Positions 4,125 through 23,988 of a DNA stretch of 64,000 nt are shown here, piece after piece. The notes under the pieces are model-generated. The model made no database searches. It was not told the DNA's origin and was given only the letters and a program-made list of their open reading frames with translations. Origin of the DNA: an uncultured virus (IMG/VR IMGVR_UViG_3300037420_000217) (Duplodnaviria; Heunggongvirae; Uroviricota; Caudoviricetes); the IMG/VR virus record IMGVR_UViG_3300037420_000217; one strand, 5' to 3'. Numbering within the stretch: the first letter of the stretch is position 1; every line of letters begins with the position of its first letter. Both the position numbers and the translations under genes were made by a program.

Positions 4125-4176
4125 GGTAGCCCTCCGTTTCTCGCCTTAGAGGCGAACAGATATGGCGCTTCGCCGA

Positions 4177-6582: not shown

Positions 6583-6585
6583 TTG

Positions 6586-7167: not shown

Positions 7168-7783
7168 GGTTGAACTCCCCATTGGAGTGACGCTTAAGCA
7201 TAATAGTCCGAAGTTTGTCTTTATGTTCTTCTGAACATGGGTGTCCTTTACGACCTGTCAGAGCCATTGATATTTTAGCTCGTCTCTCTGCAGGGCAGGG
7301 ACCTCTAGATTTACCAGCGCGAGCCGCAGACAGCTTAGCGCGTGTTGTCTCGCTAGGTTTGATGCCGCGCTTAGAAGCAGATATTTTGGCTCGCGTTTCC
7401 ACAGAGGTCGAACCCCTCTGTCTACGAGCAATGGTAATCTTCTCTATGGTCGCGTCAGAGTGCCGTTGGCCCTGACGTTGAACAGATTTCCGTTGGGCAT
7501 AAGCTCTACGCAAGTCAGCATGTTTCAAACGCGAATGCCTTCCTGCGTAACGCTCATTATCCAACATCAACACAAACGCGGACACCATTGGGCCACCATG
7601 TATTTTAGCCAATAGCAGATGTCCAAAAAGGTGATCGCCATGAGACAGTTTGATTAGATTATCAGGCGCATCTGTACCACCCAGCGATCTGGGCACAACA
7701 TGGTGTGTTTCATACACGACCAACGCGTGTTGAATGAGGCGTCGAGACTGTATGAAGTCATTGTAAATGCGCTCAAGATTCAT
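7160..7783 (-). mobile_element. Free-standing HNH homing endonuclease with NUMOD3-like repeats
   Basis: ETHHVVPRSLGG.D..DNL..L...DH..GH; repeated ETRAK(I/L)S; AT-richer than flanks; start ATG 7783 overlaps the upstream TAA. Confidence 0.8.
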
Positions 7784-8244
7784 TATCTGGCTGCCTGCGG
7801 TCCAGCTTCTTGATCTTGATATTTCGCTGTCTCGGGATAAGGCAGCTCGGTTGGAGCGTCCAACCATTCAAAAATCACCTGCGCAATGGCTTGACCTTGT
7901 TCCAAACGAATCACTTTGTGGCCGTGGTTGACTAGCTCCAAAGTCAGAAAGCCTCGCCAACCAGGCTCGATGACAGTATTCATCACCGATAGTCCACGCC
8001 GTGCCAGAGACGATTTGTCGCAAACTCTCGCCATGATAGACGGAGTCATGGTGAAGCGCTCCAAGGCGGCAGCCAAAATGAATTCACCGCTCCGTAGGTA
8101 GCGCTCTTGTTTTCCATTCCCGAGGTCCAACCGTAAATCATAGCCGCAAGGCCCCAATCCATAGGTCAAACCATTGCGCTCGGTGCGCGGGTGGCAAGGC
8201 TCTAGCAGCTTGTTAAGCCTAATCGATTGAGCAGAGAGGATCAT
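7783..8244 (-). CDS. dcd: dCTP deaminase
   Basis: YGL...GYDLRL, DKSSLARRGL...NTVIEPGWRGFLTLEL, KYQDQ motifs. Confidence 0.85.
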   Translation of the reverse strand: MILSAQSIRLNKLLEPCHPRTERNGLTYGLGPCGYDLRLDLGNGKQERYLRSGEFILAAALERFTMTPSIMARVCDKSSLARRGLSVMNTVIEPGWRGFLTLELVNHGHKVIRLEQGQAIAQVIFEWLDAPTELPYPETAKYQDQEAGPQAAR

Positions 8245-8561
8245 TTGTCCAACATTGCCTCAAGACGTCCGGAGCTGCGCAGGGGCACATAGCTCACCAC
8301 CCGGATGTCGCTCGGCCACACGCCGAGCTTCTTGGCGATCCGGGGGGTGATCCGAGTGGCCTCGTAGTACAGCCAGCCGCTGTGCGGTCCCCGCAGGATG
8401 CGCCGTTGGGCCAGGAACACCAGCCCTTCGTCGCTGGCCTTCATCGCGCTGTGGAGTGACGCGTGGTCCTCCTGCGTCCTGCGCGGGTCCTTGTTATCGC
8501 ACTTGAAGTAGGTCATCTTCTGACCCGGAAGGGCCTTCAACGCCCAGGTGTACACGCTCAC
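8241..8561 (-). CDS. Hypothetical phage protein (~106 aa)
   Basis: Start moved to GTG 8561 with GGAGG SD; ATGA overlap with dcd. Confidence 0.6.
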   Translation of the reverse strand: MSVYTWALKALPGQKMTYFKCDNKDPRRTQEDHASLHSAMKASDEGLVFLAQRRILRGPHSGWLYYEATRITPRIAKKLGVWPSDIRVVSYVPLRSSGRLEAMLDK

Positions 8562-8637
8562 GGCTCTAGGCCCTCCACTTCGGAAGTCGCACCCTACCTG
8601 GTCGATGGTTGCAACCGCGACTACAGGCGGTTGAGGG

Positions 8638-10599
8638 TCACGCCGCGTCCTTGATCTCGCCCCAGGACGGCCCCACCTCAAGGTCCACCTTGGAGGGAAC
8701 CTTCAACTGGATCACGTTCTCCATGATCTCAGCGGCGCGGCGGCCTTCCTCGACGCTCCCCAGGCTCCAGTCGAATTCATCGTGCACCTGGAGCTGAAGG
8801 GGGAAACCCTCCCGGTCCAGCGCCACCATGGCGGCCTTCGTCTGGTCAGCCGCTGAGCCTTGAATGGCTCTATTGAATGCTTTATGAGTCCAATCAAAAT
8901 TCCCGAACTGATCTTTAGCGAAGCGGCAGCGCCGTCCGCCAATCGTCACGATGTAACCACGAGCCTTGGCCACCTTCTCAACAGCCTTGGCGGTTGCCTT
9001 TACATACGGCACCCGAGCTTCGATCTGGTCGAGGATGGCGCGGCCTTCGTCACCGGCCACTTCGAACCGCTTGCCACTGCGTTCGTCCTCTTTGATCTTG
9101 GTGGGGAGGCCCAGCTGACGACACATCTTGGGCTCACCCATGCCGTAGCAGATGCCCAGGTAGATGTTCTTGAGGATCGTGCGGGCCTGCTTGAAGCCAG
9201 CCTTGCCCAAGCGCTCCAAGGCGTCGTCACCGTGCACCAGCTGGGTGAACATCGTGTGGGCGTCCGTGTTCCGGTCGCTCCAGTATCGTCGGGCAGCCTC
9301 TTCAGCGGAGGCGAAGGCCCTCTGTCCAAGTCGCTGCATGCCAGAGGCTATGGCGAAGTGGACGGCCAGGCGCGGCTCCTGCTGGCTGTAGTCGAGGCTG
9401 CCCCACAGGCCGCCCTCATCCGGTATGTACACCTTGCGCCAGAAAGGTCCCAGCTCAGGGTCGCGTGCCGGTTGCTGCTGTAGGTTCGGGTCCTGGCAAC
9501 TCAGTCGGCCGAAGGCTGCGCCCTCAGTCTCATCGCTGTCATCCTCCTGTCGCACGATCTGGTTGAACGTACAGTGGATGCGGTCGCCAATAGCGTGAGT
9601 GCGGATCGCGGCCACGAAGGTGGAGCGCAGCTGGCTCATCTTGCGTGCCCGGCGGATCAACTCCCCAAGGGGGTGGTCCAAGGCGTCAAGGTAGTCCTTG
9701 GTGATGGACGCCTTGCCTTTGGCTGTGTTGTAGACCGGGATGTCAGCAGCCCGAAGTGCCTGAGCCACGACCTCAGCCTTCATGGCATCACCCACGCGGA
9801 TCGCCACGCCGGTCAGGCGTTGGACCTCGCCCCAGGCCTTCATCTCCTCCGCCATGGAGAAGCGTTCCACCTTGTCAAGGTGGTCGAAGTCCACACGCAC
9901 CCCGCGTCGTCGCATCTTGACAAGGACTGGCGTGACCGCCGTCTCCAGGCTCCAGATGCGGCCCAGCCCTTGTTCCTCAATCTCAGCCTCCTGCTTGCGC
10001 AAGAGGGTCAGTGGTCGGATAGCGTCAGCCTCAGCGTATTCGCCCACGTAGCGCGCCGGGAGCTTCCACAGGTCGGCCTTCGGGTCCACCCGGAACTCAG
10101 CCGCCGCCTTGCGCAGCTCATCCTCAAACTTGAGTGGCAGGCCGTGGCGCTTGAGGATGTTGTCGAGGCTGTAGCTGTACTGGAGTTCATCCAGCAGCGG
10201 CTCAGCCACCTGGACGTCCTTGAAGCATTTGGCGTTGGGAAACGTGATGCCAGCTTCCGCCAGGTAATCCAGATCGTAATCCAACCTGGCGCCAACAATC
10301 TCCCCACGGAAGTTGCGGGCCTGCTCCCGAACGTACTCCAGCGCCTTCTCCGGGTCCTCCATGTTGTCGCCGCCGAGGTGACGCAACGGGAGGTAGTGAG
10401 CGCGGTTCTCACCCACGGCGAAGCTGATGCCTGCGATGAAGCCGCCGCGCCGGACCCCAGGCCCCAGCTTCTTGAGCAGGGGGTCACAAGTCTCTGTGTC
10501 TAGCCCAAGACGATCCGTCTGGTTCCAGTCGGTGGGCAGATCAATCATGCGGGGCGCGGACCACTTCGCCACCGGTGGGAACAACGCGCCTTGTAGCAT
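8638..10599 (-). CDS. polA: Family A DNA polymerase with 3'-5' exonuclease domain
   Basis: ExoI GLDTET; GRLSCQDPNLQQ; motif A DYSQQEPR; motif B K..YLGICYG; motif C QVHDE. Confidence 0.95.
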   Translation of the reverse strand: MLQGALFPPVAKWSAPRMIDLPTDWNQTDRLGLDTETCDPLLKKLGPGVRRGGFIAGISFAVGENRAHYLPLRHLGGDNMEDPEKALEYVREQARNFRGEIVGARLDYDLDYLAEAGITFPNAKCFKDVQVAEPLLDELQYSYSLDNILKRHGLPLKFEDELRKAAAEFRVDPKADLWKLPARYVGEYAEADAIRPLTLLRKQEAEIEEQGLGRIWSLETAVTPVLVKMRRRGVRVDFDHLDKVERFSMAEEMKAWGEVQRLTGVAIRVGDAMKAEVVAQALRAADIPVYNTAKGKASITKDYLDALDHPLGELIRRARKMSQLRSTFVAAIRTHAIGDRIHCTFNQIVRQEDDSDETEGAAFGRLSCQDPNLQQQPARDPELGPFWRKVYIPDEGGLWGSLDYSQQEPRLAVHFAIASGMQRLGQRAFASAEEAARRYWSDRNTDAHTMFTQLVHGDDALERLGKAGFKQARTILKNIYLGICYGMGEPKMCRQLGLPTKIKEDERSGKRFEVAGDEGRAILDQIEARVPYVKATAKAVEKVAKARGYIVTIGGRRCRFAKDQFGNFDWTHKAFNRAIQGSAADQTKAAMVALDREGFPLQLQVHDEFDWSLGSVEEGRRAAEIMENVIQLKVPSKVDLEVGPSWGEIKDAA

Positions 10600-10907
10600 C
10601 AGATGTCATCCACCCGGACCCGGCACATCACGTTGCCGAGCTTCATGGGCAGCTGGTGTTTGGCGTCGTGAGCCAGCTCCTCCTGCACCCGTGCGATGGC
10701 GTGCCGCACCGTGGTCCGGTCGCGGTCGAAGGCGCGGCCAACCGAGGCGTTGGACTGGTTCGGCAAGCTCCGATAGACGTGCATGGCGTAACGTCGCAAA
10801 CGCGCCACCTCCGGCGTGCCTCTCGTGCACTTAAGCACAGCGGCCATAGATCGAGGTGCGCCGAACTCCCGACACACCTCTCGCACAACGTCTCGGGCCG
10901 TAATCAC
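10599..10907 (-). CDS. Stand-alone DnaA domain IV-like HTH protein (~102 aa)
   Basis: RRYAMHVYR...SNASVGRAFDRDRTTVRHAIARV resembles the DnaA C-terminal signature; GTG start in a GTGA overlap. Confidence 0.7.
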   Translation of the reverse strand: MITARDVVREVCREFGAPRSMAAVLKCTRGTPEVARLRRYAMHVYRSLPNQSNASVGRAFDRDRTTVRHAIARVQEELAHDAKHQLPMKLGNVMCRVRVDDI

Positions 10908-11278
10908 TGGTTGACCTCGATCAGCATGCCCCGCAAGATGCGGATCGCAGTTTCTATGTGGCCCGAAGTGCCGTAGTGGGGGTGCAGGATAAGGGCCAAG
11001 CAATCCCGGTCAGACGGCTGGTGGTGTTGTCTGCGGCAGTGGAACCAGCGCTCCAGCAGCTGGCGATCCGCAGACCGCTTCACCCCACGACCGTTCATCT
11101 TCTCCAGGTAGCTGATGGCCTTCTGTAGGTCCACCGCAGGCGTGCCCTTGTGGCGCCAACGGTCGATGTATTTGCTGGCCGTCGCTTCCAAGTAAGCCAC
11201 ATCAGTGGCTTCGATGACATCCCAGTGTTGTATTTCGCCGTCGTAATGAGCGCCGCCGACTTGGGGAACGTAGACCAT
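10904..11278 (-). CDS. DUF3310 protein (T7 gp1.7-like putative nucleotide kinase)
   Basis: QVGGAHY...KYIDRWRHKG...DLQKAISYLE. Confidence 0.75.
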   Translation of the reverse strand: MVYVPQVGGAHYDGEIQHWDVIEATDVAYLEATASKYIDRWRHKGTPAVDLQKAISYLEKMNGRGVKRSADRQLLERWFHCRRQHHQPSDRDCLALILHPHYGTSGHIETAIRILRGMLIEVNQ

Positions 11279-11901
11279 CAGATACCAGCCACCTGCTTGA
11301 GTAAATCGAACTTGAGACGCTGGCCGCAGTTAGCTTTCGCGGCTCGCATCACGGCAAGGAAGATAGGATGGGGCGGCGTCTTCTGGAAAGAGGCGTCGTA
11401 GTCGCGGACCCATTCCATAAAGTACACGTTGCCGCGCGCCGTCTCTTCAATGCACCACAGGTACAATTCTACCTTGTCGCAGGTGGTCAGCCATTCGTCC
11501 TCCTCAGGCGTGAGCTGGTAGTGGAGCCCAATGGCGTACTCCACCCGAAGCTCCCCGGCCTGGAGTGCCGGCCCAACCAGAACCTTGGTGGGTTGCGGCA
11601 TATCGCCGAAGATGCGCTCAGGGTGATCGTGAACCTGGGCCATGGCGATCAGCTCAGCACGAGGGAGCGCCCCGTTGTGCGCCGACTGCCAGGTCAGGAT
11701 CAGCAGGTTCACGAGGTCATGAGTGTGCATCCCGACGCTGTAGCGCATCAAGTGGGGATGGATGTGGCACCGCTCCACAGCCGCACCTTCCCGCGTGAGC
11801 CTGATCTTGTCGAACAGGCTCAGCTTAGGGGAGCACTGGCAGGCCGTCATCTTGTGGGCTCCGCAGTCCAGGCAGTAGGCTGCCGCTGATTGATCAGACA
11901 T
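11278..11901 (-). CDS. HD-domain 5'-deoxynucleotidase (YfbR-like)
   Basis: R.H....YSVGMH...VHDHPE.IFGDMP...CDKVE; start moved to ATG 11901. Confidence 0.75.
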   Translation of the reverse strand: MSDQSAAAYCLDCGAHKMTACQCSPKLSLFDKIRLTREGAAVERCHIHPHLMRYSVGMHTHDLVNLLILTWQSAHNGALPRAELIAMAQVHDHPERIFGDMPQPTKVLVGPALQAGELRVEYAIGLHYQLTPEEDEWLTTCDKVELYLWCIEETARGNVYFMEWVRDYDASFQKTPPHPIFLAVMRAAKANCGQRLKFDLLKQVAGI

Positions 11902-12979
11902 GCTGGACCCCATCGTCAGCGGCCTGCTCCCACTTGAGGTAGCGGCGCATGATCCACTCCTTGGCGGCCAGCCGCCAGTCGGAGGCCTGGACTTGATCCA
12001 GGATTTCCAGCGCGCCTTCGTAGCGGTCCCGGCCACGCTTGGTCTTCCAGTGATGGTGTGCGGCAGCCATCGGCACCACGACCTTGGACAGGAACGGCCA
12101 CCTGGCCTTGGTGGCTGAGTCCTGCCAGCCGTAGGTGAAGAACACCATCAGGTCATCCTGAAGGATGCGCTCTCGAACAGCATCGGAGCTGTGCTCTTGG
12201 AAGCCCTCGAACAGCCCAAAGGATGTCACAGTGCCGTAGGCGTACGGGTCCACGCCGCCTGGCCAGTTCGTCCAGCAAGCGTCAGGATCGCCCGCGTTCT
12301 CCACGTAGGCATGGAAGTTGTTGCTGATCTGGGTGTAGGTGCCCACCTCCAACCCGAGGCGGCAGGCCAGGTATTCCAGCATCACGCTGAAGTGGACTGC
12401 GTTCGCTCCGTAGGCTCCCCAGATCATGTCGTTGGAGCGGTTGAACACGGTCAGGTGGAGCTTGCCGTTGCCCACCCAAGGCAGGGCCGTCAGGTTGCAT
12501 GGGACGTCCTTGCTGTCGCGATTGGCGGCTGCAACATCTGTGAACGGGTCCCACATCTGGATGACCACGCGACGGTCGTTTGGATTGTCACGCAGACGCT
12601 TTACGGCCCAATTGAGCTGATCAGCCCAACCCAAGCCTTCGAAGCGATGATTGCGCCACCGCGCACCGTAGGCCGCAGGCTGCGTCACACCGCCATCGTC
12701 GCTGAACAGCTCCATGCGCTTGACGTAGGGCGTGAGCTGCTTCAGGTCATCTCGCCCAGCCAACATCCACATCGCCTCCACCAGGTGGAAGAACGGGTTG
12801 GCGTCCCGCCAGGGGTGGAATAGAACCCGCTCGTTGGGGTTCGTGTAGATCGTCGCCACCGGAGCCGGCATCCGCAGGACGTCACCCGCCCTGCTGGGCT
12901 CCGGTACACCGAGCTGGTGGATCAGAGTGACGCCTTGACTGATGGCGTAGTTGACATTGCGGGCGTCGATGAACAGCAT
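11894..12979 (-). CDS. Thymidylate-synthase-fold dUMP hydroxymethylase
   Basis: AYGARW, DRRVV, catalytic DVPCN, RSNDMIWGAYGAN (Asn at the dUMP-specificity position), FHAY; hypermodification gene context. Confidence 0.85.
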   Translation of the reverse strand: MLFIDARNVNYAISQGVTLIHQLGVPEPSRAGDVLRMPAPVATIYTNPNERVLFHPWRDANPFFHLVEAMWMLAGRDDLKQLTPYVKRMELFSDDGGVTQPAAYGARWRNHRFEGLGWADQLNWAVKRLRDNPNDRRVVIQMWDPFTDVAAANRDSKDVPCNLTALPWVGNGKLHLTVFNRSNDMIWGAYGANAVHFSVMLEYLACRLGLEVGTYTQISNNFHAYVENAGDPDACWTNWPGGVDPYAYGTVTSFGLFEGFQEHSSDAVRERILQDDLMVFFTYGWQDSATKARWPFLSKVVVPMAAAHHHWKTKRGRDRYEGALEILDQVQASDWRLAAKEWIMRRYLKWEQAADDGVQHV

Positions 12980-13104
12980 GCTGCGGCCTTTTTCTCGAAT
13001 TGTAATGCCAAGCGTCGTAGGGTGCGCTTGGTGGTGATTGATACAGCAGCCTCAGCCTCGCGCCGAAGGATCGCGGCTGCTTCAGCCCAGGTGTCAGCTT
13101 CCAC
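12922..13104 (-). CDS. Possible small protein (60 aa)
   Basis: Fills the gap between kinase and hydroxymethylase genes but overlaps both. Confidence 0.35.
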   Translation of the reverse strand: MEADTWAEAAAILRREAEAAVSITTKRTLRRLALQFEKKAAACCSSTPAMSTTPSVKASL

Positions 13105-14083
13105 GGCCAGGCACGTACATGGACCTTGGCCGACCCTCGCCGTTGCGGACCCGCAGCCACTTGTCGGTCTCGCAACAACAGTTTTGAATATCGCTCAGGT
13201 CGATGGGATGCATCCACGATGCCAAGTTGGCATTGACCAGCTCTCTTAATTCGATCAGCTCGGCCACGCCCTGGTCCTGCTTGAGCGGATACTTGACATC
13301 GCGTCCGTGAAGTCTGTTAAGTCCACGCGCCGAACCGGGACCTAAAGCAGTCCAAGTCTGGATGTCTGGGGCATTCCTCAGATAGCGGGTCCACCTCAGA
13401 TCAGTCACGACCTGTCCAGCCATAAACGGACCCCAGCCTGTGTAATGCTTGTCTTGGAAGCGCAGCCACACGTCCTGGAGCCGAAGATCAGGAACATCGA
13501 ACAGCTGGCGCCAGTGCTTGCGTTCAGCCCACAGCTTACCCAGCACAACCTCACTGATGTAGCGTTGCTTAGACCAATTGTACCATGGAGCGTTTGGGTC
13601 GCTCTCGGCGCGCAGCATATACGCGCCACCTTCCATCTTGACGCCGCGAGACTTGCGCAGCTCCAGACCAACGGTCATGGTCTCGGGGCTGAAGTGCTCG
13701 TCATCGGGCCAGCCATCCGTGCCGATCAGATCAGCCAGCGTATCGGGCCAGTTGATATACCTGGCCGCAGCGAGCATGTACCACAGGTGCTCGTGGTCCG
13801 CGAACGGCTCCCGGATGTGCTCCCTGATCCAGACCGTCACCCGGTCCAGCTCCCGGTACACGTTGCAGAAGCGGAACTGTCGCATGACAGGATCGTCGGT
13901 GAGCCAATTCAAGTCCCACGCTGCGGCCTCGTGGCCCCACGCCGCCTTCATGCGGCTGCTCATTCGAGCTGGGGTGTTGGGGTCCTCAGCTCGATGCTCC
14001 AGCCAGGTCTTGCGCATGTAGATCGCGTGGCGCTCGTTGGCCCAATCGATCAGGGGCTGGGCTTGATCAAGCGTGAGTGGCAT
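13094..14083 (-). CDS. 5-hmdU DNA kinase (aGPT-Pplase1 helical family)
   Basis: ERHAIY..K...WLTDDPV..FRFCNVYRE.DRVT, GPFMAGQVVTD, GPGS.RGL, IQNCCCE.DK; start at ATG 14083. Confidence 0.8.
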   Translation of the reverse strand: MPLTLDQAQPLIDWANERHAIYMRKTWLEHRAEDPNTPARMSSRMKAAWGHEAAAWDLNWLTDDPVMRQFRFCNVYRELDRVTVWIREHIREPFADHEHLWYMLAAARYINWPDTLADLIGTDGWPDDEHFSPETMTVGLELRKSRGVKMEGGAYMLRAESDPNAPWYNWSKQRYISEVVLGKLWAERKHWRQLFDVPDLRLQDVWLRFQDKHYTGWGPFMAGQVVTDLRWTRYLRNAPDIQTWTALGPGSARGLNRLHGRDVKYPLKQDQGVAELIELRELVNANLASWMHPIDLSDIQNCCCETDKWLRVRNGEGRPRSMYVPGRGS

Positions 14084-14744
14084 ACTCAGCTCCCCGGCCC
14101 GTAATGATCTTCCACACGACATCGACCTCACCGCCGAACGGCAGATCATAGACCAGCTTGCCGGCGGCCAGGGCCTTGGCGCGCGTCGCCGCAATAGCCT
14201 TGAACTTGTCGGCCACCAGATCGCGCTTGATCTCCTTGACCTTGCCGGAGGCCTCCTGGCGCTGCCGGATGCGGTCGAAGCAGATGTCCAGAGGCGTCTG
14301 CAGGTAGCAGAAGGCGAACTGGTGCCCCAGGTCCTTGACGGTCGCGGCGAACTCGCCCCAAGAGCCGTACACGGTGGAGGCCAGGACACCTTCGGCAATC
14401 ACTGCGTCCACCTCCCTGAACACCTGAGAGTACGTGTTGCTTCCCTCGCCAAGCGCATACAAGATCGCAGCCTGCTGAACCGCGAAGCTGGGCACGTTGT
14501 CCAGACCACCAGTGGCAGTCCTGTACGGCCCCACCACCGCGATGGTAGGCTCATCCTCGTCATGTCTGACGTAGCCCTCAACTCGCAGCTGCCGCAGCGG
14601 GTCCCTCTTGGTGGGCGAGCTGTACCAATTGAGGTCCACAGGACCTCCGTGGCTGTCACCCCTCAGGTTCGGCGGCAGGAAGGCCTTGGCCAGGGTGGTC
14701 TTGCCGGCACCGTTGGTGCCTCGAATGTTGATGACGATCCCCAC
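14067..14744 (-). CDS. P-loop nucleotide kinase of thymidine-modification clusters
   Basis: Walker A IRGTNGAGKTT; GGLD, EG; L.TPLD.C..RI..R. Confidence 0.75.
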   Translation of the reverse strand: MGIVINIRGTNGAGKTTLAKAFLPPNLRGDSHGGPVDLNWYSSPTKRDPLRQLRVEGYVRHDEDEPTIAVVGPYRTATGGLDNVPSFAVQQAAILYALGEGSNTYSQVFREVDAVIAEGVLASTVYGSWGEFAATVKDLGHQFAFCYLQTPLDICFDRIRQRQEASGKVKEIKRDLVADKFKAIAATRAKALAAGKLVYDLPFGGEVDVVWKIITGRGAEYATHA

Positions 14745-14821
14745 CGGGCCGCTCCTCTGCTTCTGGTCGATGGCACCTTATCCCCGGACGGCCGGAGCCG
14801 TCGCGGAGGTTCGGTTGCGGA

Positions 14822-15679
14822 TCAGTGCGACAGTGGCAGATAGCTCAACAACTCATCAGCCGTCTTGGACACCTTGGCCCAAGGCTCCGCGCCTTCCCTG
14901 ATCTCGATGAGGTCATTGTTCAGAGGATAGTGGCCATTCATGTGGGACTTCCACTTGCACAGAATGGTCTCGACCTCTTGAAGGCCCACAGGCCGGTCAT
15001 AGAGCGGCGGCGCCATATAGTTCTCGAAGTGCTCAATCAAGTAATCGACCACCATGTTGATGGCCTTGGCCTCATCCTTGATGGTAGCCTCTTCAGGAAT
15101 ACCCCCACGCAGACGGAACATCTTCAAAGCCGCTTTGCGCGGATCGTCGAACATGAACACAGCTGCGTTGTCGAACGACACGTCAGCGATACCAAGGCGG
15201 TCGATCATGTCGGCGATCTTGAACGACATCCAATCCCCGAAGCTGGCGTGCTGTTTCACCCGGCTCGCCACAGTCTTGTATGGAATGGTCGTGTCGAGGT
15301 CAGGCAGCTCCGCGATCTGACGCACCATGTCGCCGGGCACAGTGAGGTACTTGCCCATGAGGTCCCGGACGGCCTTGCGGGCTGCCAGGCCTCGCCAGTG
15401 GCGGCGCTCTGAGCCTCTGGGCCAACGGTCCCCGAGCGGCGAAGCCTGCTCGTTCTCGGCTGCCGTCCTGAGCAGTTGCCAGAACTCCCGGCCTTCCGCC
15501 TCGCTGATGTAGCAGGCCGCACCGACGTGGTACAGGCACCAGTAGGCGATCAACCACCTGTACATCCGCTCAGGCTCCATCTCCGCCTTGTGAAGCATGA
15601 TGTAGACCGGGTCAAGGTCGCCGCTTTCCAGCAGCTGGTTGCCGAAGGCCTCAATGGTGAGGCGCTCATAGTTGCGCAT
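14822..15679 (-). CDS. Amino acid:DNA transferase (aGPT-Pplase2/AADT family)
   Basis: GDLDPVY, WLIAYWCLYH.G.A, RGSERRHWRG, FGDWMSFKIADM, QEVETILCKWKSH.NGHY. Confidence 0.8.
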   Translation of the reverse strand: MRNYERLTIEAFGNQLLESGDLDPVYIMLHKAEMEPERMYRWLIAYWCLYHVGAACYISEAEGREFWQLLRTAAENEQASPLGDRWPRGSERRHWRGLAARKAVRDLMGKYLTVPGDMVRQIAELPDLDTTIPYKTVASRVKQHASFGDWMSFKIADMIDRLGIADVSFDNAAVFMFDDPRKAALKMFRLRGGIPEEATIKDEAKAINMVVDYLIEHFENYMAPPLYDRPVGLQEVETILCKWKSHMNGHYPLNNDLIEIREGAEPWAKVSKTADELLSYLPLSH

Positions 15680-15681
15680 AG

Positions 15682-16530
15682 TCAGGTCCTCAGTTTCTCG
15701 GTGAGTTGGATGGCAGCCCAGGCCGCTCCCAGCGTGCCGTTCTTGGCGCCACCGGTGACGATCCAGCCATTGGTGATCTCCCGGATGTATGCCGGCTCCT
15801 TCAGACCCTTCATGTATGGCCGGTAGCCGTACAGCACTTCCGCACGGCCAGGATCAGCCGCGAGTGCGGCTGCGCACCGGTTCAGGCTCGCCTGCATACG
15901 CTCCTCAGTCATGCTCATAGGCAGCAGCGCCGAGCCGTCTCCGATCCAGATGTGATCCGGGTCTCGGTTGAAGGCCACGATCTGCTTGTATGGCGCCCAG
16001 ACCTGGATGAACGGCTGGTCCAGCTGACCCTCGAACAGGAAGCCCCAGCCACCCTTGGACTGAAGGCTAAGCGCGTCGGCGTTGGCCATCTGCTCCCATG
16101 CCCAATTCCCGGTGGCAAAGATGATCTTGTCATAGCCCTCCATGTAGCTGCGACCGTGCTGATTATCCTCCCAGCGTGCCACTTGAGGCCATTCACACAT
16201 TGGCCACACCGTGTCCTTGTAGGTCCCGAACCGATCCGGTGGACGCAGGACCTTCGCCGGGTCCACCCAGTGGCAGTTGGTCATCAGACCGCTGGGCTTG
16301 ATCTTGAACGGGATCGTCTGGACGCCGTACAAGTGGTCCAGCAGCTCGATAGCGTGACCGTAGTCCTTGCCCATGCTGGAAGCCCACTCAGGCTTCATGA
16401 GGCAAGCCGCTGGGACCGAGCCCATACCATCCCGCTGATCAGCCAACACGACCACTTCATGGCCATGACGACGGATCGTGGCCGCGATGATTGAGCCAAA
16501 CAGCCCAGCGCCGACGACCAGGACCTTCAA
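15682..16530 (-). CDS. FAD-dependent oxidoreductase (DAO/glycine-oxidase-like) of the modification cluster
   Basis: N-terminal VVGAGLFG Rossmann motif, G.RPY, C-terminal TGGAKNG; TTG start in a TTGA overlap. Confidence 0.8.
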   Translation of the reverse strand: MKVLVVGAGLFGSIIAATIRRHGHEVVVLADQRDGMGSVPAACLMKPEWASSMGKDYGHAIELLDHLYGVQTIPFKIKPSGLMTNCHWVDPAKVLRPPDRFGTYKDTVWPMCEWPQVARWEDNQHGRSYMEGYDKIIFATGNWAWEQMANADALSLQSKGGWGFLFEGQLDQPFIQVWAPYKQIVAFNRDPDHIWIGDGSALLPMSMTEERMQASLNRCAAALAADPGRAEVLYGYRPYMKGLKEPAYIREITNGWIVTGGAKNGTLGAAWAAIQLTEKLRT

Positions 16531-16709
16531 TGGAGTAGCGCCTGGTGGATGTGAGTGACCATCTGCATCGCGCTTATGATGGTCACCATGCCGATGTAGA
16601 TGCCCATTCCCATGAACACGCCCTTGATGTATCCGGCCCAGGCTACATCTCGCGCCCACCGATTTTCATGCCACCAGCGGCGCAGCTTATCATGCCAATG
16701 TTCGTTCAC
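16527..16709 (-). CDS. Small membrane protein (60 aa)
   Basis: GTGA overlap start; one hydrophobic helix. Confidence 0.55.
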   Translation of the reverse strand: MNEHWHDKLRRWWHENRWARDVAWAGYIKGVFMGMGIYIGMVTIISAMQMVTHIHQALLH

Positions 16710-16924
16710 GCTGTATGTTCCCTCTTCAACCTGCACCACTCGACAGCTCTGTACCAACGTGCAGAGGATCGTGGGGGTGTCTCCACGAATGACTTGGCGT
16801 AGTGGCGCGCCATCGCCCGGTGTTCGGCCGGAACCTCAACAGGCTCCGGCAAGTCCTTGAACTTCACCAGCCACAGACGCTCGGTGGGGTTCTTGGGCCG
16901 ATCCTTGCGAGACTTACCCGGCAT
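16706..16924 (-). CDS. Small basic hypothetical protein (72 aa)
   Basis: ATG 16924, coupled to neighbours. Confidence 0.5.
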   Translation of the reverse strand: MPGKSRKDRPKNPTERLWLVKFKDLPEPVEVPAEHRAMARHYAKSFVETPPRSSARWYRAVEWCRLKREHTA

Positions 16925-17423
16925 TCCACCACACCGCCTCTGTATGGAGCTGACGACCAACGGTGAGCCACCACTTGATCGCCGTCTTGCCAGCCGGGGT
17001 GAGCGGAATTGGCGGTTCCATCAGCAGCCGCGCGTGCCGGGCTGGATAGGCGATTGTGACCCGAGCCCGGCGGGCTCCAGACTGCTCGTAAATGCGCCGG
17101 TACAGTAGGTGCCGCGTGAGGTGGCCGGTATTCAGGACGATCACCGGAGGCACATCCTCGCGCATCCTCTCCAGCCCCTTGACCACGCCTGCGGCAGTAG
17201 GGTCGGCCTTACAGGTTACGGCGACCAGCCAAGGCATCCCGGCCGATAGCAGCTTCCATTGATCGCGCGTGGCGCACTCCCAGGTGCGCTCGACTGCGTG
17301 GGCCACGGTCTCGACTGTCTGGGGCTGGCCATCTGGAAGCGGAGACAGGTCTGCCCGTTTCACGAGCAGACCTGCTTCAGCTAGGTGATCCTCAAGCGGC
17401 GGAAGGCTTGGCTCAAGGAACAT
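16914..17423 (-). CDS. Hypothetical protein (169 aa)
   Basis: AGGAG SD just after the upstream stop; no recognisable motif. Confidence 0.55.
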   Translation of the reverse strand: MFLEPSLPPLEDHLAEAGLLVKRADLSPLPDGQPQTVETVAHAVERTWECATRDQWKLLSAGMPWLVAVTCKADPTAAGVVKGLERMREDVPPVIVLNTGHLTRHLLYRRIYEQSGARRARVTIAYPARHARLLMEPPIPLTPAGKTAIKWWLTVGRQLHTEAVWWNAG

Positions 17424-17435
17424 GCGGCACGGCTC

Positions 17436-18302
17436 CTACTGCTTGGCCGCCGCTTCCTTGGCCGCCTTCAGGGCCTCAGCAGTGGCAGCCTTGGCTGCGG
17501 CGATCTGCTCCTTGGACGGCTTCGTCGGCCGGGGCGTATGCGCCAGAGGAACTTCCATACCCTTCGGCAGGGCCAGGCGATACACCAGCAGCTTGAAGTC
17601 GGGGTTATAAGCCGTGGTGCCGAAGCCCAGGCGGTTGGCCTCGTAGGTCCGACCCTGCTTGGCGAACTCCTCGCCGTTCAGCGCCTCGCTGGTCACGCCG
17701 TAGCCGGTCAGGTGGTTGATGTCCCAGGCGATCATCGAGCGGATGCTGACGCCGGTCCAGGGCTTGCCGTTGCGGGCAGCCTTGAGGGTGTCATACATCT
17801 CAGCGAAGGTGGCGCCTTGAGGACGGGCCAGCAGGTCCACCAGGGCGGCCTGAGCAGTGCCCTCCTTGCGGGGGAACACGCGGGTCTTGGCCTTCAGGTC
17901 GGTGAGCCGCACGACCTTGCGCAGCACCGGCATCTGGCTGTCCTTCTCCTTGTCATCGCTGGCGATGGGGAGCGACGGACCAACCGGCGGGGTCGGCGTC
18001 TGGTCCTTGGCGGCGGCCTTCGCCGCAGCAGCTTCCGCCTTCAGCCGATCCTTCTCGACCTTGGCGGCTTCCTTGGCCACATCCTTCTCGGCCTTGGTCG
18101 GGCCGCTAGCCGGAGCCGACGCCGCCTCGGTGAACGGAGCGGGGCGCTTCTCGGGCGCAACCATGCTCAGTACCTTGCGGGTCCGGTCCTCGGCGGTCTT
18201 GCGGTCGGCGAACTTGGTCACCGGCTTGTGGCCGAGCGCGTCAGCCAGGCCGTTGTAGGTATCGACCAGCACGTTGGTCGGGATGTCGTTGAAATTGATC
18301 AT
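17436..18302 (-). CDS. Ala/Lys-rich putative DNA-binding protein with DUF3489-like wHTH
   Basis: KEGTAQAALVDLLARPQGAT.AE pattern; strong codon bias; first gene after the promoter at 18361-18389. Confidence 0.65.
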   Translation of the reverse strand: MINFNDIPTNVLVDTYNGLADALGHKPVTKFADRKTAEDRTRKVLSMVAPEKRPAPFTEAASAPASGPTKAEKDVAKEAAKVEKDRLKAEAAAAKAAAKDQTPTPPVGPSLPIASDDKEKDSQMPVLRKVVRLTDLKAKTRVFPRKEGTAQAALVDLLARPQGATFAEMYDTLKAARNGKPWTGVSIRSMIAWDINHLTGYGVTSEALNGEEFAKQGRTYEANRLGFGTTAYNPDFKLLVYRLALPKGMEVPLAHTPRPTKPSKEQIAAAKAATAEALKAAKEAAAKQ

Positions 18303-18360
18303 GCGATTGTCCTCGGCTTCTTGATTCAGGGAGGGGTTAGGACCGCCTCAACGAGAACCA

Positions 18361-18389
18361 TTTGTAGTGCCACTCCGGGGATAGGTCAA
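18361..18389 (-). promoter_or_regulatory. Sigma70-type phage promoter TTGACC-N17-TACAAA with TATCCCC box
   Basis: Minus strand TTGACCTATCCCCGGAGTGGCACTACAAA. Confidence 0.75.
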
Positions 18390-18416
18390 GAGCCTTTCGG
18401 AGTAATTCTTGTCGCC

Positions 18417-18617
18417 TCAGATCAGGTCCTTGACCTCGCACAGCCAAGCCGGAACTTCCAGCTTGATCTTGGTGCCCTCCAACGGCTCATCCGGGACTTC
18501 GATTTTGCTGAGGGGGAGGTTCACCCTCACGTTGTGGTGGTTCATCACCCACCAGTTCAGCGCGTCGGCACGCATGAAGCGCACCTCCACTTCCACGAGT
18601 TCGTCACGTTTGGACAT
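18417..18617 (-). CDS. Small hypothetical protein (66 aa)
   Basis: GGAGG SD; LPLSKIE...VPAWL. Confidence 0.6.
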   Translation of the reverse strand: MSKRDELVEVEVRFMRADALNWWVMNHHNVRVNLPLSKIEVPDEPLEGTKIKLEVPAWLCEVKDLI

Positions 18618-18626
18618 GGTGTCCTC

Positions 18627-20597
18627 CTAGCGGATGGGGCAGACGCCGCTGGCGCATTCGTCGGCCAGCTCGTCCAGGTCCAGAGCCCCACCGAGCTTGG
18701 CGCTCCAGTCGATGGGCTGGAGCCCGGCGGTGTAGGCCTTGAATGTCTTTTCGTCCACGACTTCCTGCGGCAGGTAGGCTGCGCCGAAGTCCTTGGCGGT
18801 CTTGGTGGGGTCCGTGCGGAACGCCCACGACACTCCCACGTAGCTGTCCCAGTGCTGAAGCATCCAGTCGATGATGCCGGGGACCTCATCAGCGTCGTAG
18901 CTGATCGTGATGGAGCAATTCTGATCAACGAAGTTGTCCATCAGCAGCCGGTAGCGCTCCAGCTGGCTGATCGCAGGCTCAAGATTGACCGGCGTGCCGT
19001 GGAAGTCCTCGAACACCACCCCGGCGCTCTCCACCGGGAACTTGATCAGCACCTGCGTCTCTTGCGTCGGGTGCGGTCGCACCTCATAGCCGGCAGCCTT
19101 GAGGACGTCCACCAGAGGGTCCATGCGACCGTACACGATGGAGTTGAACACGTACCGGCCCAGCGGCTTGTGTGCCCCCTCGGTCGTGTCCATCACCTTG
19201 CTCAGCGTCCCGGACGGCTTGACGCAGGTGACGTTCTTGGGGCGCGGGGTGCCCAGCTCGTCAGCCATGCTCCAGGCCCCCATAGTGGCGGCGATCCGCA
19301 GCTGCTTCAGGTCGTGTGCGCCGAGGTCAGGGCGCATAGCCCAGCCAGTCCCGGACACACCGCAGAGGTGGAGAAACTCGTTGTTCTCGTGCCAGGCACG
19401 CTGCAGGATGCCGTCATCCAGGTTCACGAGGGTCTGGCGGTAGTTGGCGCGGCCGATCAGGTAGAACGTCCGGCTGAGCGCCGCGAGGTGCTGGTGGGCT
19501 TCGTGGGCCGTGTTAACTTCCGCCAGGTTGCAGAAGCCCTTGTCTGCCAGGAGGATTTCAACGCAGGGGTTGGCCGTGTCGAACCAAGGAGCGCGGCGAC
19601 GCGCGGCGGCGGCGTTGATGAACCCTGGCTCGTTGCCGCCGGAGGCCACGATCAGGTCGAATATGGAGTTGAGTTGTTCCCTGGTGGGCTTCTCCCAGAA
19701 CAGCAGTGAGTTGTTGGACTGCTGGCGCTGGAAGCGCGTCGGGTCGCTGTAGCAGTTCGTCTTGAACTTGATGAAGTCGCCCACCTCATCATCGTCCGCA
19801 TCCATCAGGAGGATTTCCGCGCCGCGACGGCCAGTCTGGATCACCCCCATGTGATTGATGATGTCCATGATGTCCACCTTGCGGAGCAGCTGTCCAGCGC
19901 GGCGGCTCATGATGGCGGCGATCTTGGGAAGCTCTTCACTGATCACCGTGTCACCGGAGGAGCGCCAGCCGTACCGACTGAGCATGCTGCCCTCCGGTCG
20001 CAGCTGGCTGAAGTCCAGCACCAGCTTGACAGCTGGGTACTTGCCAGCGAGCAGCTTGCCAATGGTCTTGGCCCAGGCTTCGCCGCTGTCCCCCACCTGG
20101 ATCATCCAGACCTTGGTCTCTGGGTCCCAGGTCTCGGTGTTGGTCTCCTTGCCGCCCTTTTCAGTGCGCTTGGAGCGGATGATCTCGATGTCTTGGATCG
20201 GCCTCATGAAGCCGTTGAGGCAACCGGTCTGCGGCTTCGCGCCGACGCCGCAGCCGTTGAGCAGCAGCCACATCATGTCAACCATGTCGTACACGGTCTT
20301 GGCAACCGCACCCGAGCAATTGAACATGCTGCACTCTCGGGTGTAGGCAATCTCGGTGCCACCCAGCCACATCGTGCGGCCTGCCGGTGCTGCTCGCCGG
20401 TCTGCAAACATAGCCTGGAGCTCATCCAGCTCTTGATCCTCGACAGTATTCAACACTCGTCCAAGCTGTCGTTCCCATAACCAACGCTGATGACGAATGA
20501 CCCTTGAGATAGTTTGCTCGTAAGTCTCATGTCCGTCGCCCAGCGGACGGGAATACGTGCGCATGAACACCGCCGCTGCGCGAGCTGACATAAGCAT
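18627..20597 (-). CDS. nrdJ: Class II (B12-dependent, monomeric RTPR-type) ribonucleotide reductase
   Basis: RTYSR, PAGR, FNCS, NPCVEI, CNLAE, VKPSGT, C-terminal CASGVC; no beta subunit gene nearby. Confidence 0.9.
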   Translation of the reverse strand: MLMSARAAAVFMRTYSRPLGDGHETYEQTISRVIRHQRWLWERQLGRVLNTVEDQELDELQAMFADRRAAPAGRTMWLGGTEIAYTRECSMFNCSGAVAKTVYDMVDMMWLLLNGCGVGAKPQTGCLNGFMRPIQDIEIIRSKRTEKGGKETNTETWDPETKVWMIQVGDSGEAWAKTIGKLLAGKYPAVKLVLDFSQLRPEGSMLSRYGWRSSGDTVISEELPKIAAIMSRRAGQLLRKVDIMDIINHMGVIQTGRRGAEILLMDADDDEVGDFIKFKTNCYSDPTRFQRQQSNNSLLFWEKPTREQLNSIFDLIVASGGNEPGFINAAAARRRAPWFDTANPCVEILLADKGFCNLAEVNTAHEAHQHLAALSRTFYLIGRANYRQTLVNLDDGILQRAWHENNEFLHLCGVSGTGWAMRPDLGAHDLKQLRIAATMGAWSMADELGTPRPKNVTCVKPSGTLSKVMDTTEGAHKPLGRYVFNSIVYGRMDPLVDVLKAAGYEVRPHPTQETQVLIKFPVESAGVVFEDFHGTPVNLEPAISQLERYRLLMDNFVDQNCSITISYDADEVPGIIDWMLQHWDSYVGVSWAFRTDPTKTAKDFGAAYLPQEVVDEKTFKAYTAGLQPIDWSAKLGGALDLDELADECASGVCPIR

Positions 20598-20599
20598 GA

Positions 20600-23926: not shown

Positions 23927-23988
23927 GCTTGTATTCCTTTAGTTGAATTGAGGTGGTCTCTTTACCGTGCACCAGCTCTTGGCACGTC

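Follow-up and report, generated by a model that had tools for sequence, protein, structure and literature searches.

A predicted thymidine hypermodification cluster pairing a flavin-dependent lyase with a truncated PLP-enzyme homologue in an uncultured phage

Results

Overall organization of the cluster

Analysis of a 64,000-nt stretch of DNA from an uncultured virus (IMG/VR IMGVR_UViG_3300037420_000217; hereafter, the window) points to a post-replicative thymidine hypermodification operon of the PaMx11/M6 family that would follow the FAD route, leave the amine free in virion DNA and carry a 169-aa ORF as the leftover of an enzyme swap; the probability of this reading is estimated at approximately 0.6. 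ORF calls and profile matches place five contiguous genes at 11894–16530, as the preliminary description of this DNA had reported; all five are on the minus strand. The labels that it gave to the FAD oxidoreductase, the transferase, the P-loop kinase and the dUMP hydroxymethylase homologue are retained, whereas the label "5-hmdU DNA kinase" for 13094–14083 is rejected: its product is a helical protein of the aGPT-Pplase1 type whose homologues are PaMx11 gp50 and M6 gp55, and it is the P-loop ORF at 14067–14744 that is homologous to the kinase with biochemical proof of activity (PaMx11 gp49, M6 gp54). The genes of the cluster and its surroundings are as follows.

7783–8244, minus strand: dCTP deaminase/dUTPase-like protein (PF22769, 1e-20; PF00692, 8.6e-10)
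10904–11278, minus strand: DUF3310 protein, PaMx11 gp53 homologue and conserved cluster neighbour (PF11753, 2.1e-6; tblastn to gp53, 1.2e-11)
11278–11900, minus strand: HD-domain phosphohydrolase, PaMx11 gp52 homologue (YfbR-like, 5.4e-8; phrog_6047, 3e-32)
11894–12979, minus strand: thymidylate synthase (TS) homologue (PF00303, 2.4e-19; phrog_5131, 4.4e-106)
13094–14083, minus strand: helical aGPT-Pplase1/HMUDK_hel protein, PaMx11 gp50 and M6 gp55 homologue (PF18723, 3.6e-34)
14067–14744, minus strand: P-loop kinase, PaMx11 gp49/M6 gp54 homologue (AAA_33, 5.5e-7; Walker A GTNGAGKT)
14822–15679, minus strand: amino acid:DNA transferase, aGPT-Pplase2/PUGT (PF18724, 3e-24)
15682–16530, minus strand: FAD lyase/N-alpha-glycinylthymidine oxidase, PaMx11 gp47 (NGTO) homologue, TTG start at 16530
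16527–16709, minus strand: orphan ORF of ~60 aa with one hydrophobic segment, read from the sequence
16706–16924, minus strand: basic orphan ORF of 71 aa
16914–17423, minus strand: homologue of M6 gp52 (PLP-dependent decarboxylase, fold type II), 169 aa long with an internal deletion
17436–18302, minus strand: gp45-like protein with a C-terminal DUF3489 (1.4e-4, under the cut-off)

The TS homologue is 43% identical to PaMx11 gp51, and among solved structures it is closest to the CMP 5-hydroxymethylase MilA (3.8e-21). Its catalytic Cys aligns with that of MilA, and a uracil-type Asn is found where the cytosine-specific MilA has an Asp; the choice between Asn and Asp at this position is associated with base specificity in the TS and dCMP hydroxymethylase literature. 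The protein is predicted to be a dUMP hydroxymethylase rather than a methylase because it resembles gp51, its best solved relative is a hydroxymethylase, and the pathway needs 5-hmdU. The HD protein matches PaMx11 gp52 (tblastn, 2.4e-22), its start codon (ATG at 11900) overlaps the stop codon of the TS gene, and it probably edits the nucleotide pool, while the product of 7783–8244 has a probable role in dU nucleotide supply.

The P-loop ORF, which scores 26.1 bits against HMUDK_HMUD1 (just below the 27-bit cut-off of Pfam), matches gp49 (tblastn, 7.8e-13, 30% identity) and EVB34_005 of phage RHph_TM26 (tblastn, 1.5e-45, 49.5%) and is predicted to be the 5-hmdU DNA kinase. The helical gene starts at the ATG at 14083 (not at 14398), is preceded by GGGGAG and overlaps the kinase stop by 17 nt; its product is 53% identical to RHph_TM26 EVB34_007. 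Production of N-alpha-GlyT in lysates did not need the homologue M6 gp55 (PMC8989533 section 16).

On the upstream side, the TGA of the ~60-aa orphan and the TTG that starts the FAD gene overlap. Neither this orphan nor the 71-aa orphan has a Pfam or PHROG match, and no other lyase or gp52 locus compared contains a counterpart of either; the 71-aa orphan has a homologue only in the near-identical contig L039. Many related clusters likewise have a gene for the gp45-like protein (38% identity to Sonora gp038; 16 homologues aligned) as a conserved neighbour on the upstream side of the transferase.

Active sites of the FAD lyase and the transferase

The FAD lyase matches DAO (PF01266, 1.3e-8) in Pfam, phrog_16743 (2e-58) and the "flavin-dependent lyase" of PDB 8z2o/8z79 (5e-62; 8z2o, 5.4e-62), and an alignment gives 43% identity to PaMx11 gp47. 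The dinucleotide motif GAGLFG is present. With the functional residues of gp47 taken from PMC11472151, the pocket residues K48, W51, P179, Y180, Q182, R210, R242, Y244 and K268 are conserved, including R242, which is proposed to bind the glycine carboxylate (PMC11472151), whereas four residues that contact the DNA backbone differ (F52A, R181K, K202L and N205S). The 8z2o match together with W51, Y180, Q182, R242, Y244 and K268 places the protein among the FAD-dependent N-alpha-GlyT oxidases by sequence. The gene is intact, and the second contig, L039, carries it with 99% conservation.

The transferase is 52% identical to PaMx11 gp46 and matches the "glycinyltransferase" of PDB 8z2m (2.8e-91) as well as 25qc (6.3e-91). 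In the gp46 alignment, D24, Y47, Y51, E92, R94, H95, R97, W146, K150, F173, D175, E243, T244, C247, D262 and E265 are retained; PF18724, the 8z2m match and the catalytic residues among these (D24, W146, K150, E243, T244 and C247) assign the protein to the gp46/PUGT family. The residues that determine the donor in YuA Pplase2 are described in PMC13458397 (sections 36 and 38), and the chain numbering of 25qc is converted to that of the paper by an offset of one. The alignment to 25qc shows all six donor-pocket residues conserved (D24, E96, K159, K248, Y257 and D262, YuA numbering), among them the glycine determinants K248 and Y257, and the transferase is predicted to be glycine-specific.

The 169-aa ORF is a truncated PLP-enzyme homologue

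The preliminary description had suggested 16914–17423 as a possible unknown finishing enzyme, which is not supported, as the encoded protein is of the gp52 PLP-enzyme type but has neither the small domain nor the lysine that would form the aldimine. A profile search identifies the long forms P0005 (5.6e-28), P0007 (1.9e-11) and P0010 (3.8e-7), which themselves match PALP at 24–34 bits. The alignment of the 169-aa family with M6 gp52 (hhalign) has a probability of 99.9 and an E-value of 1.3e-33, and BLASTP of the ORF against gp52 gives 6e-4. Approximately 110 residues are absent (gp52 columns ~27 to 136), including PSFSKIRGV, the small domain and K36, the lysine that forms the internal aldimine with PLP in M6 gp52 (PMC8989533 section 19). 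The large domain is kept, and the phosphate-loop residues are changed from SSGT in gp52 to CKADPT.

The AF2 model of the protein has a pLDDT of 90.2, and the top 29 rows of its VIA-align comparison are all fold-type-II PLP enzymes, with the best Z of 13.7 for 4d97_A (rmsd of 3.1 over 158 residues). Fold-type-II (PALP) homology is found, whereas K36, the small domain and an rSAM partner are absent. With both the small domain and the PLP-binding lysine gone, the ORF most likely represents a relic, or else a domain put to another use. Three other sequences contain conserved short gp52-like forms at 33–62% identity, and their persistence in diverged sequences suggests a retained function and argues against a dead relic.

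Genome closure and the search for tailoring enzymes

The genome was closed to a circle of about 69,967 bp via the near-identical IMG/VR contigs L008 and G001, a closure that depends on a single bridging contig. The cluster of the 169-aa protein itself is recorded on a 73,834-bp contig, 3.9 kb longer than the circle; the extra 3.9 kb could be a terminal repeat or sequence outside the circle. In the window, none of the 234 ORFs of at least 80 aa on both strands matches the GNAT, PLP or rSAM families of Pfam at E <= 0.001, and tblastn with PaMx11 gp48 gives no match at E < 1. A search of the closed genome, as 1,031 pieces translated in six frames, with custom profiles (AT, LMWPc, amidoligase-like, rSAM, two methyltransferases and Nmad5) yields nothing below E 0.3: the best score of the gp48-family acetyltransferase profile is E 5.4, so that no gp48-type GNAT is recognized, and that of the rSAM profile is E 2.9, with PF04055 absent from all scanned ORFs.

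The preliminary description had warned that the missing enzyme might lie beyond the window. This concern is largely removed, as the 5,967 bp of the circle outside the window contain no GNAT, PLP, rSAM, methyltransferase, LMW phosphatase or amidoligase gene according to Pfam and the profiles. Its statement that no GNAT, PLP or rSAM gene is present, for which it had proposed an HMM search of the whole genome, holds for intact enzymes, whereas 16914–17423 encodes a truncated PLP-family (PALP) protein.

Related loci and the host

A survey of fetched viral loci separates the two routes. The FAD lyase occurs in none of the 55 loci with a full-length gp52-like gene, 50 of which carry rSAM, and a gp52-like ORF occurs in none of the 30 other FAD-lyase loci. 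The backbone genes of the window are more like those of an M6-type locus than those of any sampled lyase locus. The closest backbone is that of L042 (RNR, 73% identity; PolA, 65%; DUF3310, 66%; helical protein, 59%; TS, 57%), in which the corresponding slot reads PLP-rSAM-transferase. From these gene contents, the window looks like the product of a swap from the rSAM and PLP route to the FAD route, with the 169-aa ORF left over.

A tailoring gene lies beside the lyase in 24 of the 31 viral lyase loci, in which an acetyltransferase (7), an LMW phosphatase with an amidoligase-like ORF (13), an rSAM gene (2) or a methyltransferase (2) was found. No tailoring gene is recognized in 6 of the 31; five other viral loci and two cultured phages share this arrangement with the window, whose architecture is not unique. 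In a quick tree of the FAD enzymes with weak support, the nearest relative of the lyase is that of L034, which places a SAM methyltransferase exactly at the position of the three orphans of the window.

The phage is siphovirus-like and about 70 kb. The genome contains a GcrA domain, its terminase has relatives in Rhizobium, Erythrobacter and Paracoccus phages and in a Shewanella phage, and the closest kinase and helical homologues are from Rhizobium phages, which makes the alphaproteobacterial host suggested previously plausible.

Discussion

Predicted pathway and end product

By homology, the dCTP-deaminase-like enzyme and the TS homologue would provide 5-hydroxymethyl-dUMP, HD and MazG-like hydrolases would edit the nucleotide pool, and the phage PolA would incorporate 5-hmdU in place of T. 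The conserved active-site residues suggest that the P-loop kinase would then phosphorylate 5-hmdU in DNA, the transferase would exchange the phosphate for glycine to give N-alpha-glycinylthymidine, and the FAD enzyme would oxidize the N-C-alpha bond, with hydrolysis releasing glyoxylate and 5-aminomethyl-dU. A PaMx11-like route of kinase, glycine transferase and FAD lyase that lacks the acetyltransferase is therefore supported, as proposed earlier. Judging from gene content, the virion DNA most likely keeps the free amine, with 5-aminomethyl-dU as the end product, because the closed genome has no acetyltransferase or other recognizable tailoring enzyme; the earlier suggestion of this base thus stands as the best inference from the enzyme set.

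The free amine is a minority state, since most lyase loci have an adjoining tailoring gene, and 5-aminomethyl-dU may be only an intermediate, capped or converted into a different, possibly undescribed base by a host enzyme or by a phage protein of unrecognized function (the 169-aa gp52-like protein, the 71-aa or ~60-aa orphan, the gp45-like protein or another unannotated ORF). Many phage ORFs carry no annotation, and the amine could be a substrate for one of them or for a host enzyme; the methyltransferase of L034 and the conservation and confident predicted fold of the short gp52-like form also favor such a step. However, no known tailoring-family profile scores in the genome, the 169-aa ORF has lost K36 and has an altered phosphate loop, the orphans have no counterparts in other lyase or gp52 loci, complete genomes of cultured phages show the same minimal layout, and M6 and ViI end in free primary amines (PMC8989533), which together make capping unlikely. 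The survival of the short architecture at only 33–34% identity and its predicted compact fold also raise the rather doubtful possibility that the 169-aa protein is a retained component acting with the FAD lyase, either as a reader or binder of aminated thymine in DNA or as a cofactor-independent catalyst, in which case the virion base or its distribution in the genome would differ from plain 5-aminomethyl-dU.

A pathway that stalls earlier, with a lyase that is weak or inactive on phage DNA and virions containing mainly N-alpha-glycinylthymidine or 5-hmdU, would fit the four altered backbone contacts and the signs of recent remodelling (the truncated PLP gene and the orphan ORFs), but the substrate pocket and FAD motif are kept and the ORF is intact and nearly invariant in L039, so this outcome is improbable. 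The use of a donor other than glycine, which would change the product of the FAD enzyme, is conceivable in that glycine, serine, putrescine and 1,3-diaminopropane all serve as donors within the Pplase2 family and two pocket residues are enough to switch the donor (PMC13458397 section 38). It appears very improbable here, as the transferase keeps K248, Y257 and the other residues of the YuA glycine pocket, the search for solved relatives found only the two glycine enzymes (E of about 1e-91), and the lyase retains the proposed carboxylate-binding R242.

Comparison with known systems

The pathway of PaMx11 to 5-acetylaminomethyl-dU comprises gp46 (PUGT), gp47 (NGTO), gp48 (acetyltransferase), gp49 (kinase), gp50 and gp51 (Lee et al. 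2021, PMC8989533; Wen et al. 2024, PMC11472151), although even there the native base has never had confirmation from virion DNA (PMC8989533 section 20). Homologues of gp46 (52%), gp47 (43%), gp49, gp50, gp51, gp52 and gp53 form one co-oriented block beside PolA in the window, and the published catalytic residues are retained. In contrast to PaMx11, the closed genome has no gp48 homologue or GNAT, the lyase gene precedes the transferase gene rather than following it, and an M6 gp52-type remnant and two orphans lie upstream.

The M6/YuA pathway to 5-(2-aminoethyl)uridine uses gp51 (transferase), gp52 (PLP decarboxylase), gp53 (rSAM isomerase), gp54 (kinase) and gp55. The window shares with it the glycine transferase, kinase, helical protein, TS homologue and RNR-PolA slot, in addition to the gp52 homology of the 169-aa ORF. 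It differs in that the rSAM isomerase is absent, the gp52 homologue lacks ~110 residues including K36, and a FAD lyase is present, as in none of the 55 sampled gp52-type loci.

The set of FAD lyase, transferase, kinase, helical protein and TS also occurs in Rhizobium phage RHph_TM26 (MN988465) and Stenotrophomonas phage Sonora (MZ326860), whose lyases are 34–38% identical to that of the window. The complete genomes of both contain no PF00583 (acetyltransferase), PF04055 (rSAM), PF13649 (Methyltransf_25), PF01451 (LMW phosphatase) or PF00291 (PALP), with PaMx11 scoring 2.6e-16 as the positive control for PF00583. RHph_TM26 differs from the window by an extra AAA_33 kinase between lyase and transferase, and Sonora by an Nmad5 gene. 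A gp52-like remnant is absent from the fetched stretches (L004 and L005) of RHph_TM26 and Sonora; the short form might escape the PF00291 search of the whole genomes. Both phages are cultured, share the minimal enzyme set and could be tested.

An analogy to tRNA MnmC, in which cleavage of a glycine adduct yields an aminomethyl group, is drawn by Lee et al. (PMC8989533). The substrate in the window is DNA instead of tRNA, and the methyltransferase partner is missing, whereas the related locus L034 has one beside the lyase. The chemical logic is the same as that of MnmC, in which the FAD domain MnmC1 makes nm5U and MnmC2 methylates it.

Organization of the modification cluster

The window has a G+C content of 61%, and almost all genes from position 1 to about 27000 are carried by the minus strand.

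Genes of the cluster and its neighborhood, in transcription order (minus strand)
18627-20597, minus: class II ribonucleotide reductase
17436-18302, minus: gp45-like protein, weak DUF3489 match
16914-17423, minus: 169-aa ORF, gp52-type homologue
16706-16924, minus: 71-aa basic ORF
16527-16709, minus: ORF of about 60 aa with one hydrophobic segment
15682-16530, minus: FAD oxidoreductase; its TTG start overlaps the stop of the preceding ORF
14822-15679, minus: amino acid:DNA transferase
14067-14744, minus: P-loop kinase
13094-14083, minus: helical HMUDK_hel protein
11894-12979, minus: thymidylate synthase homologue
11278-11900, minus: HD hydrolase
after the HD hydrolase, minus: DUF3310 protein, then DnaA-type HTH protein, then PolA

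The same gene set is present in Pseudomonas phage PaMx11, in the order gp45-gp46-gp47-gp48-gp49-gp50-gp51-gp52-gp53, followed by PolA. In the gp45-like protein, a low-complexity linker connects a short N-terminal domain to a DUF3489-like domain at the C terminus, and in many loci of all classes this protein is kept directly upstream of the transferase or the PLP gene; gp45 was dispensable in the PaMx11 reconstitution. A scan of positions 10500-21500 for promoters and terminators gave nothing beyond chance, and a tRNA search found none.

A GIY-YIG endonuclease gene (20600-21046) adjoins the ribonucleotide reductase gene, and a NUMOD3-bearing ORF (7160-7867) lies near a dCTP deaminase-like gene, each probably encoding a homing endonuclease. 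Further GIY-YIG genes occur inside the modification clusters of three other loci (L027, L029 and L030). Proteins similar to Pam3 gp32, gp33 and gp34 (23018-25426) tie the replication module to a cyanophage. The alphaproteobacterial host proposed in the preliminary description is supported by a GcrA-domain protein at 63105-63440 (2.7e-7, over the cut-off).

Conserved residues of the modification enzymes

Two solved glycine enzymes match the transferase, the PaMx11 glycinyltransferase at 2.8e-91 and another one at 6.3e-91. Among the residues examined, which are those in the results of Wen et al. 2024 (PMC11472151), D24, Y47, Y51, E92, R94, H95, R97, W146, K150, F173, D175, E243, T244, C247, D262 and E265 are retained (alignment A1), and the K261 position is occupied by Asn. 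According to Li et al. 2026 (PMC13458397), K248 and Y257 set the glycine preference of YuA Pplase2; both residues, together with the remaining residues of the YuA glycine pocket, are present in the window transferase. The FAD enzyme matches the solved lyase gp47 (5.4e-62) and keeps K48, W51, P179, Y180, Q182, R210, R242, Y244 and K268, differing from gp47 at F52A, R181K, K202L and N205S. The closest solved relative of the thymidylate synthase homologue is the CMP hydroxymethylase MilA (3.8e-21), with which its cysteine is aligned, and an Asn replaces the MilA Asp at what we take to be the base-specificity position (Asn in uracil-type enzymes, Asp in the cytosine-specific MilA).

By its annotations, the helical protein is of the aGPT-Pplase1 type. 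The kinase label that it had initially been given is wrong: its M6 homologue gp55 is dispensable for N-alpha-GlyT formation in lysates (PMC8989533), and the homologue of the proven kinase is therefore the P-loop ORF at 14067-14744. A frameshifted kinase fusion was ruled out, because in PaMx11 (gp49/gp50) and the cultured phage RHph_TM26 (EVB34_005/007) the P-loop and helical proteins are likewise encoded by two distinct genes, and because the helical gene starts at an ATG of its own (14083), preceded by a Shine-Dalgarno sequence (GGGGAG). In RHph_TM26, the FAD lyase and transferase genes are separated by that of a second small P-loop kinase (EVB34_003, L004:1228-1719; AAA_33, 6e-12).

A gp52-type large domain upstream of the FAD lyase

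The 169-aa ORF has no match in Pfam or PHROGs, only two matches in a word-based homologue search and a best score of 0.78 against the ESM Atlas, and an AlphaFold2 model built from a two-sequence alignment reaches a pLDDT of 50. A comparison with the gp48 acetyltransferase family gave an hhalign probability of only 0.2%, and BLASTP against the methyltransferase of the viral contig L034 gave nothing. The link to the PALP family surfaced only with an exhaustive profile search, which, starting from the ORF and one close homologue, recovered 11 proteins at E <= 0.001, including the long forms P0005 (275 aa, 5.6e-28), P0007 (304 aa, 1.9e-11) and P0010 (286 aa, 3.8e-7). These long forms score 24-34 bits against Pfam PALP, for which the cut-off is 35.

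In hhalign, the family profile aligns with residues 5-278 of M6 gp52, which acts as PLP decarboxylase in the 5-NedU pathway (probability 99.9, E-value 1.3e-33), and the 169-aa ORF alone matches the C-terminal 112 residues of gp52 at E 6e-4. Residues 1-27 of the ORF correspond to gp52 residues 5-26, and residues 28-169 to gp52 from about residue 137. The intervening part of gp52, in which the segment PSFSKIRGV carries K36, the lysine proposed to form the aldimine (PMC8989533), has no counterpart in the ORF, and the SSGT loop of gp52 is replaced by CKADPT. A wider search returned 450 relatives, and among the best 120 of these the only proteins shorter than 259 aa are the 169-aa protein, P0002 (165 aa) and P0011 (213 aa).

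With a 49-sequence alignment, the AlphaFold2 model reaches a pLDDT of 90.2 and a pTM of 0.88. Foldseek gave no match to this model at E <= 0.001; its top five rows, above that threshold, are beta-cyanoalanine synthase, a fold-type-II enzyme. In a VIA-align comparison with 48,161 chains, the top 29 rows are 29 fold-type-II PLP enzymes, the best being D-cysteine desulfhydrase (4d97_A), with a Z of 13.7 and an rmsd of 3.1 over 158 aligned residues, which extend from residue 13 to residue 316 of the 328-residue chain. The homology, the missing segment and the fold matches together indicate, at the level of sequence and predicted structure, that the ORF is a gp52-type enzyme reduced to its large domain, the small domain and the lysine having gone. 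It had been put forward as a possible finishing enzyme of the cluster, a role that this remnant, lacking both the small domain and K36, does not bear out.

The gp52-like ORF is read as a remnant of an ancestral route with radical SAM and PLP enzymes, in which the isomerase was replaced by the lyase. An intact gp52 would be left with no substrate after such a swap, because gp52 is inactive on N-alpha-GlyT unless this is isomerized first (PMC8989533). Whether the remnant is purely a dead relic may be judged from its relatives and its model: the short forms P0002, P0006 and P0012 (62, 34 and 33% identity) share similar deletion boundaries and the predicted structure is confident, and both points argue against a relic of that kind. 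A viral-contig locus search with P0005 or P0006 gave no loci.

Closure of the genome and search for further tailoring genes

A Pfam scan (E <= 0.001) of every window ORF of 80 aa or longer on either strand (234 in total, 25 + 209), plus one of 76 aa, found no member of the acetyltransferase, PLP or radical SAM families among the 234. The near-identical record G001 (99%) covers the window from 17695 to 2,657 bp beyond its end. It begins at a coordinate past the cluster, so the empty result of an ADDT family search on it carries no information. The IMG/VR contig L008 contains window positions 59968-64000 (100% identity), 5,967 further bases (L008:4034-10000) and window positions 1-9463 (99.98% identity). 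L008 thus joins both window ends, so that the genome closes, through this single bridging contig, at about 69,967 bp, of which the window makes up 91%. No second gap-spanning contig was found among the metagenome contigs, and the viral scan returned L008 only. For the cluster of the 169-aa protein, the recorded contig is 73,834 bp long; its excess of about 3.9 kb over the circle of about 69,967 bp may be a terminal repeat or additional genes.

The acetyltransferase, PLP and radical SAM families were again absent from the ORFs of the 5,967-bp gap (20 of at least 60 aa, then 29 of at least 77 aa), and PaMx11 gp48 gave no tblastn match at E < 1. Related loci supplied tailoring genes for a further set of profiles (acetyltransferase, LMW phosphatase, amidoligase-like, radical SAM, two methyltransferases and Nmad5); when the closed sequence was searched as 1,031 six-frame pieces with all filters off, the best E-value was 0.36. 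The suggestion that a missing enzyme could lie beyond the window is therefore not borne out by the gap ORFs or these profiles. The stated lack of GNAT, PLP and radical SAM genes within the window holds for the Pfam families and fails for 16914-17423, the PLP gp52-type homologue.

Tailoring genes at loci with the FAD lyase

The viral contigs scanned yielded 31 FAD-lyase loci, including PaMx11 itself (L009) and L039, a contig of 28 kb that shares 99-100% identity with the window. Labels were assigned by tblastn and by Pfam scans of the unlabelled ORFs.

Genes beside the FAD lyase at 31 loci
gp48-like acetyltransferase: 7 of 31
LMW phosphatase with a 300-370-aa ORF: 13 of 31 (ORF matches Amidoligase_2 in 5; 10 loci scanned, near-duplicates L026, L032 and L038 classed by layout only)
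radical SAM/SPASM gene: 2 of 31
SAM methyltransferase: 2 of 31
nothing recognized: 6 of 31 (L019, L020, L024, L028, L036, cut inside the lyase gene with its upstream side not covered, and L039)
contig end inside the lyase gene: 1 of 31 (L012)

In the gaps between lyase and kinase of L014, L016, L023, L025, L027, L029, L030, L031, L033 and L037, a gene of the LMW phosphotyrosine phosphatase family and the 300-370-aa ORF replace the acetyltransferase. The radical SAM/SPASM genes adjoining the lyase (L015:8741-9937 and L018:5689-6975) match each other by tblastn and not M6 gp53. The FAD lyase closest to that of the window belongs to the viral contig L034, where a class I SAM methyltransferase (L034:6426-7753; Methyltransf_25, 1.9e-16) lies directly upstream of the lyase. 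This pairing resembles the MnmC1/MnmC2 logic transferred to DNA, which by analogy makes 5-methylaminomethyl-dU a candidate product. The cultured phages RHph_TM26 (Rhizobium) and Sonora (Stenotrophomonas) possess the lyase but no gp48 homologue, PF00583, PF04055, PF13649, PF01451 or PF00291; PaMx11 served as the positive control for PF00583.

Backbone of the window and proposed exchange of the tailoring module

A scan for full-length gp52-like genes gave 55 loci. An M6-type radical SAM gene lies within the fetched stretch in 50 of them, and the PLP gene stands alone in the other five, several at contig ends. None of the 55 carries the FAD lyase, and a gp52-like ORF (E <= 0.01) is absent from all lyase loci except that of the window. 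Three of the PLP and radical SAM loci contain a gp48-like acetyltransferase gene (L054, L066 and L080) and five an amidoligase-like gene (L046, L047, L064, L070 and L076), which suggests capped derivatives of 5-aminoethyl-dU.

The backbone of the window is closest to that of L042 (ribonucleotide reductase 73%, PolA 65%, DUF3310 66%, helical protein 59%, thymidylate synthase homologue 57%, kinase 50%), in which the slot from the reductase to the transferase holds the PLP gene and then the radical SAM gene; no lyase-class locus exceeds 52% (PolA), 55% (helical protein) or 50% (thymidylate synthase homologue). In a quick lyase tree, the window enzyme stands beside that of L034 (SH-aLRT 80), which shares the lyase-transferase-kinase order and has its methyltransferase where the window has orphans. 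The state with nothing recognized beside the lyase requires at least three changes on this tree.

Proposed pathway and comparison with known systems

By homology, the route would begin with the supply of dU nucleotides, followed by hydroxymethylation of dUMP, editing of the pool and incorporation of 5-hmdU. The conserved residues, taken together with what has been published on the biochemistry of homologous enzymes, suggest that 5-hmdU in DNA would then be phosphorylated, that glycine transfer would follow, and that FAD-dependent oxidation and hydrolysis would yield 5-aminomethyl-dU and glyoxylate. From the absence of further enzymes, no later step is predicted.

Every enzyme type of the cluster is already described, and combinatorial mixes of FAD, radical SAM, PLP and amidoligase genes have been noted in metaviromes (Lee et al., PMC8989533). 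5-aminomethyl-dU has been shown only as an in vitro intermediate of the PaMx11 pathway, and the literature searched does not report it as the end product in virion DNA; supplements, outside the scope of the search, might show acetyltransferase-less clusters in figures. A chemistry paper counts 5-aminomethyluracil among phage bases (PMC11550810). The window cluster and the minimal set of RHph_TM26 and Sonora predict 5-aminomethyl-dU as a virion base, in named cultured phages, and DNA bearing a free aminomethyl handle is relevant to restriction evasion and to enzymatic DNA labelling. The literature searched also yielded no account of a gp52-type remnant next to an FAD lyase. The truncated gp52 homologue on a backbone like that of the PLP and radical SAM loci can be read as a concrete trace of the replacement of a tailoring module, which favors the “combinatorial gene pool” view of Lee et al.
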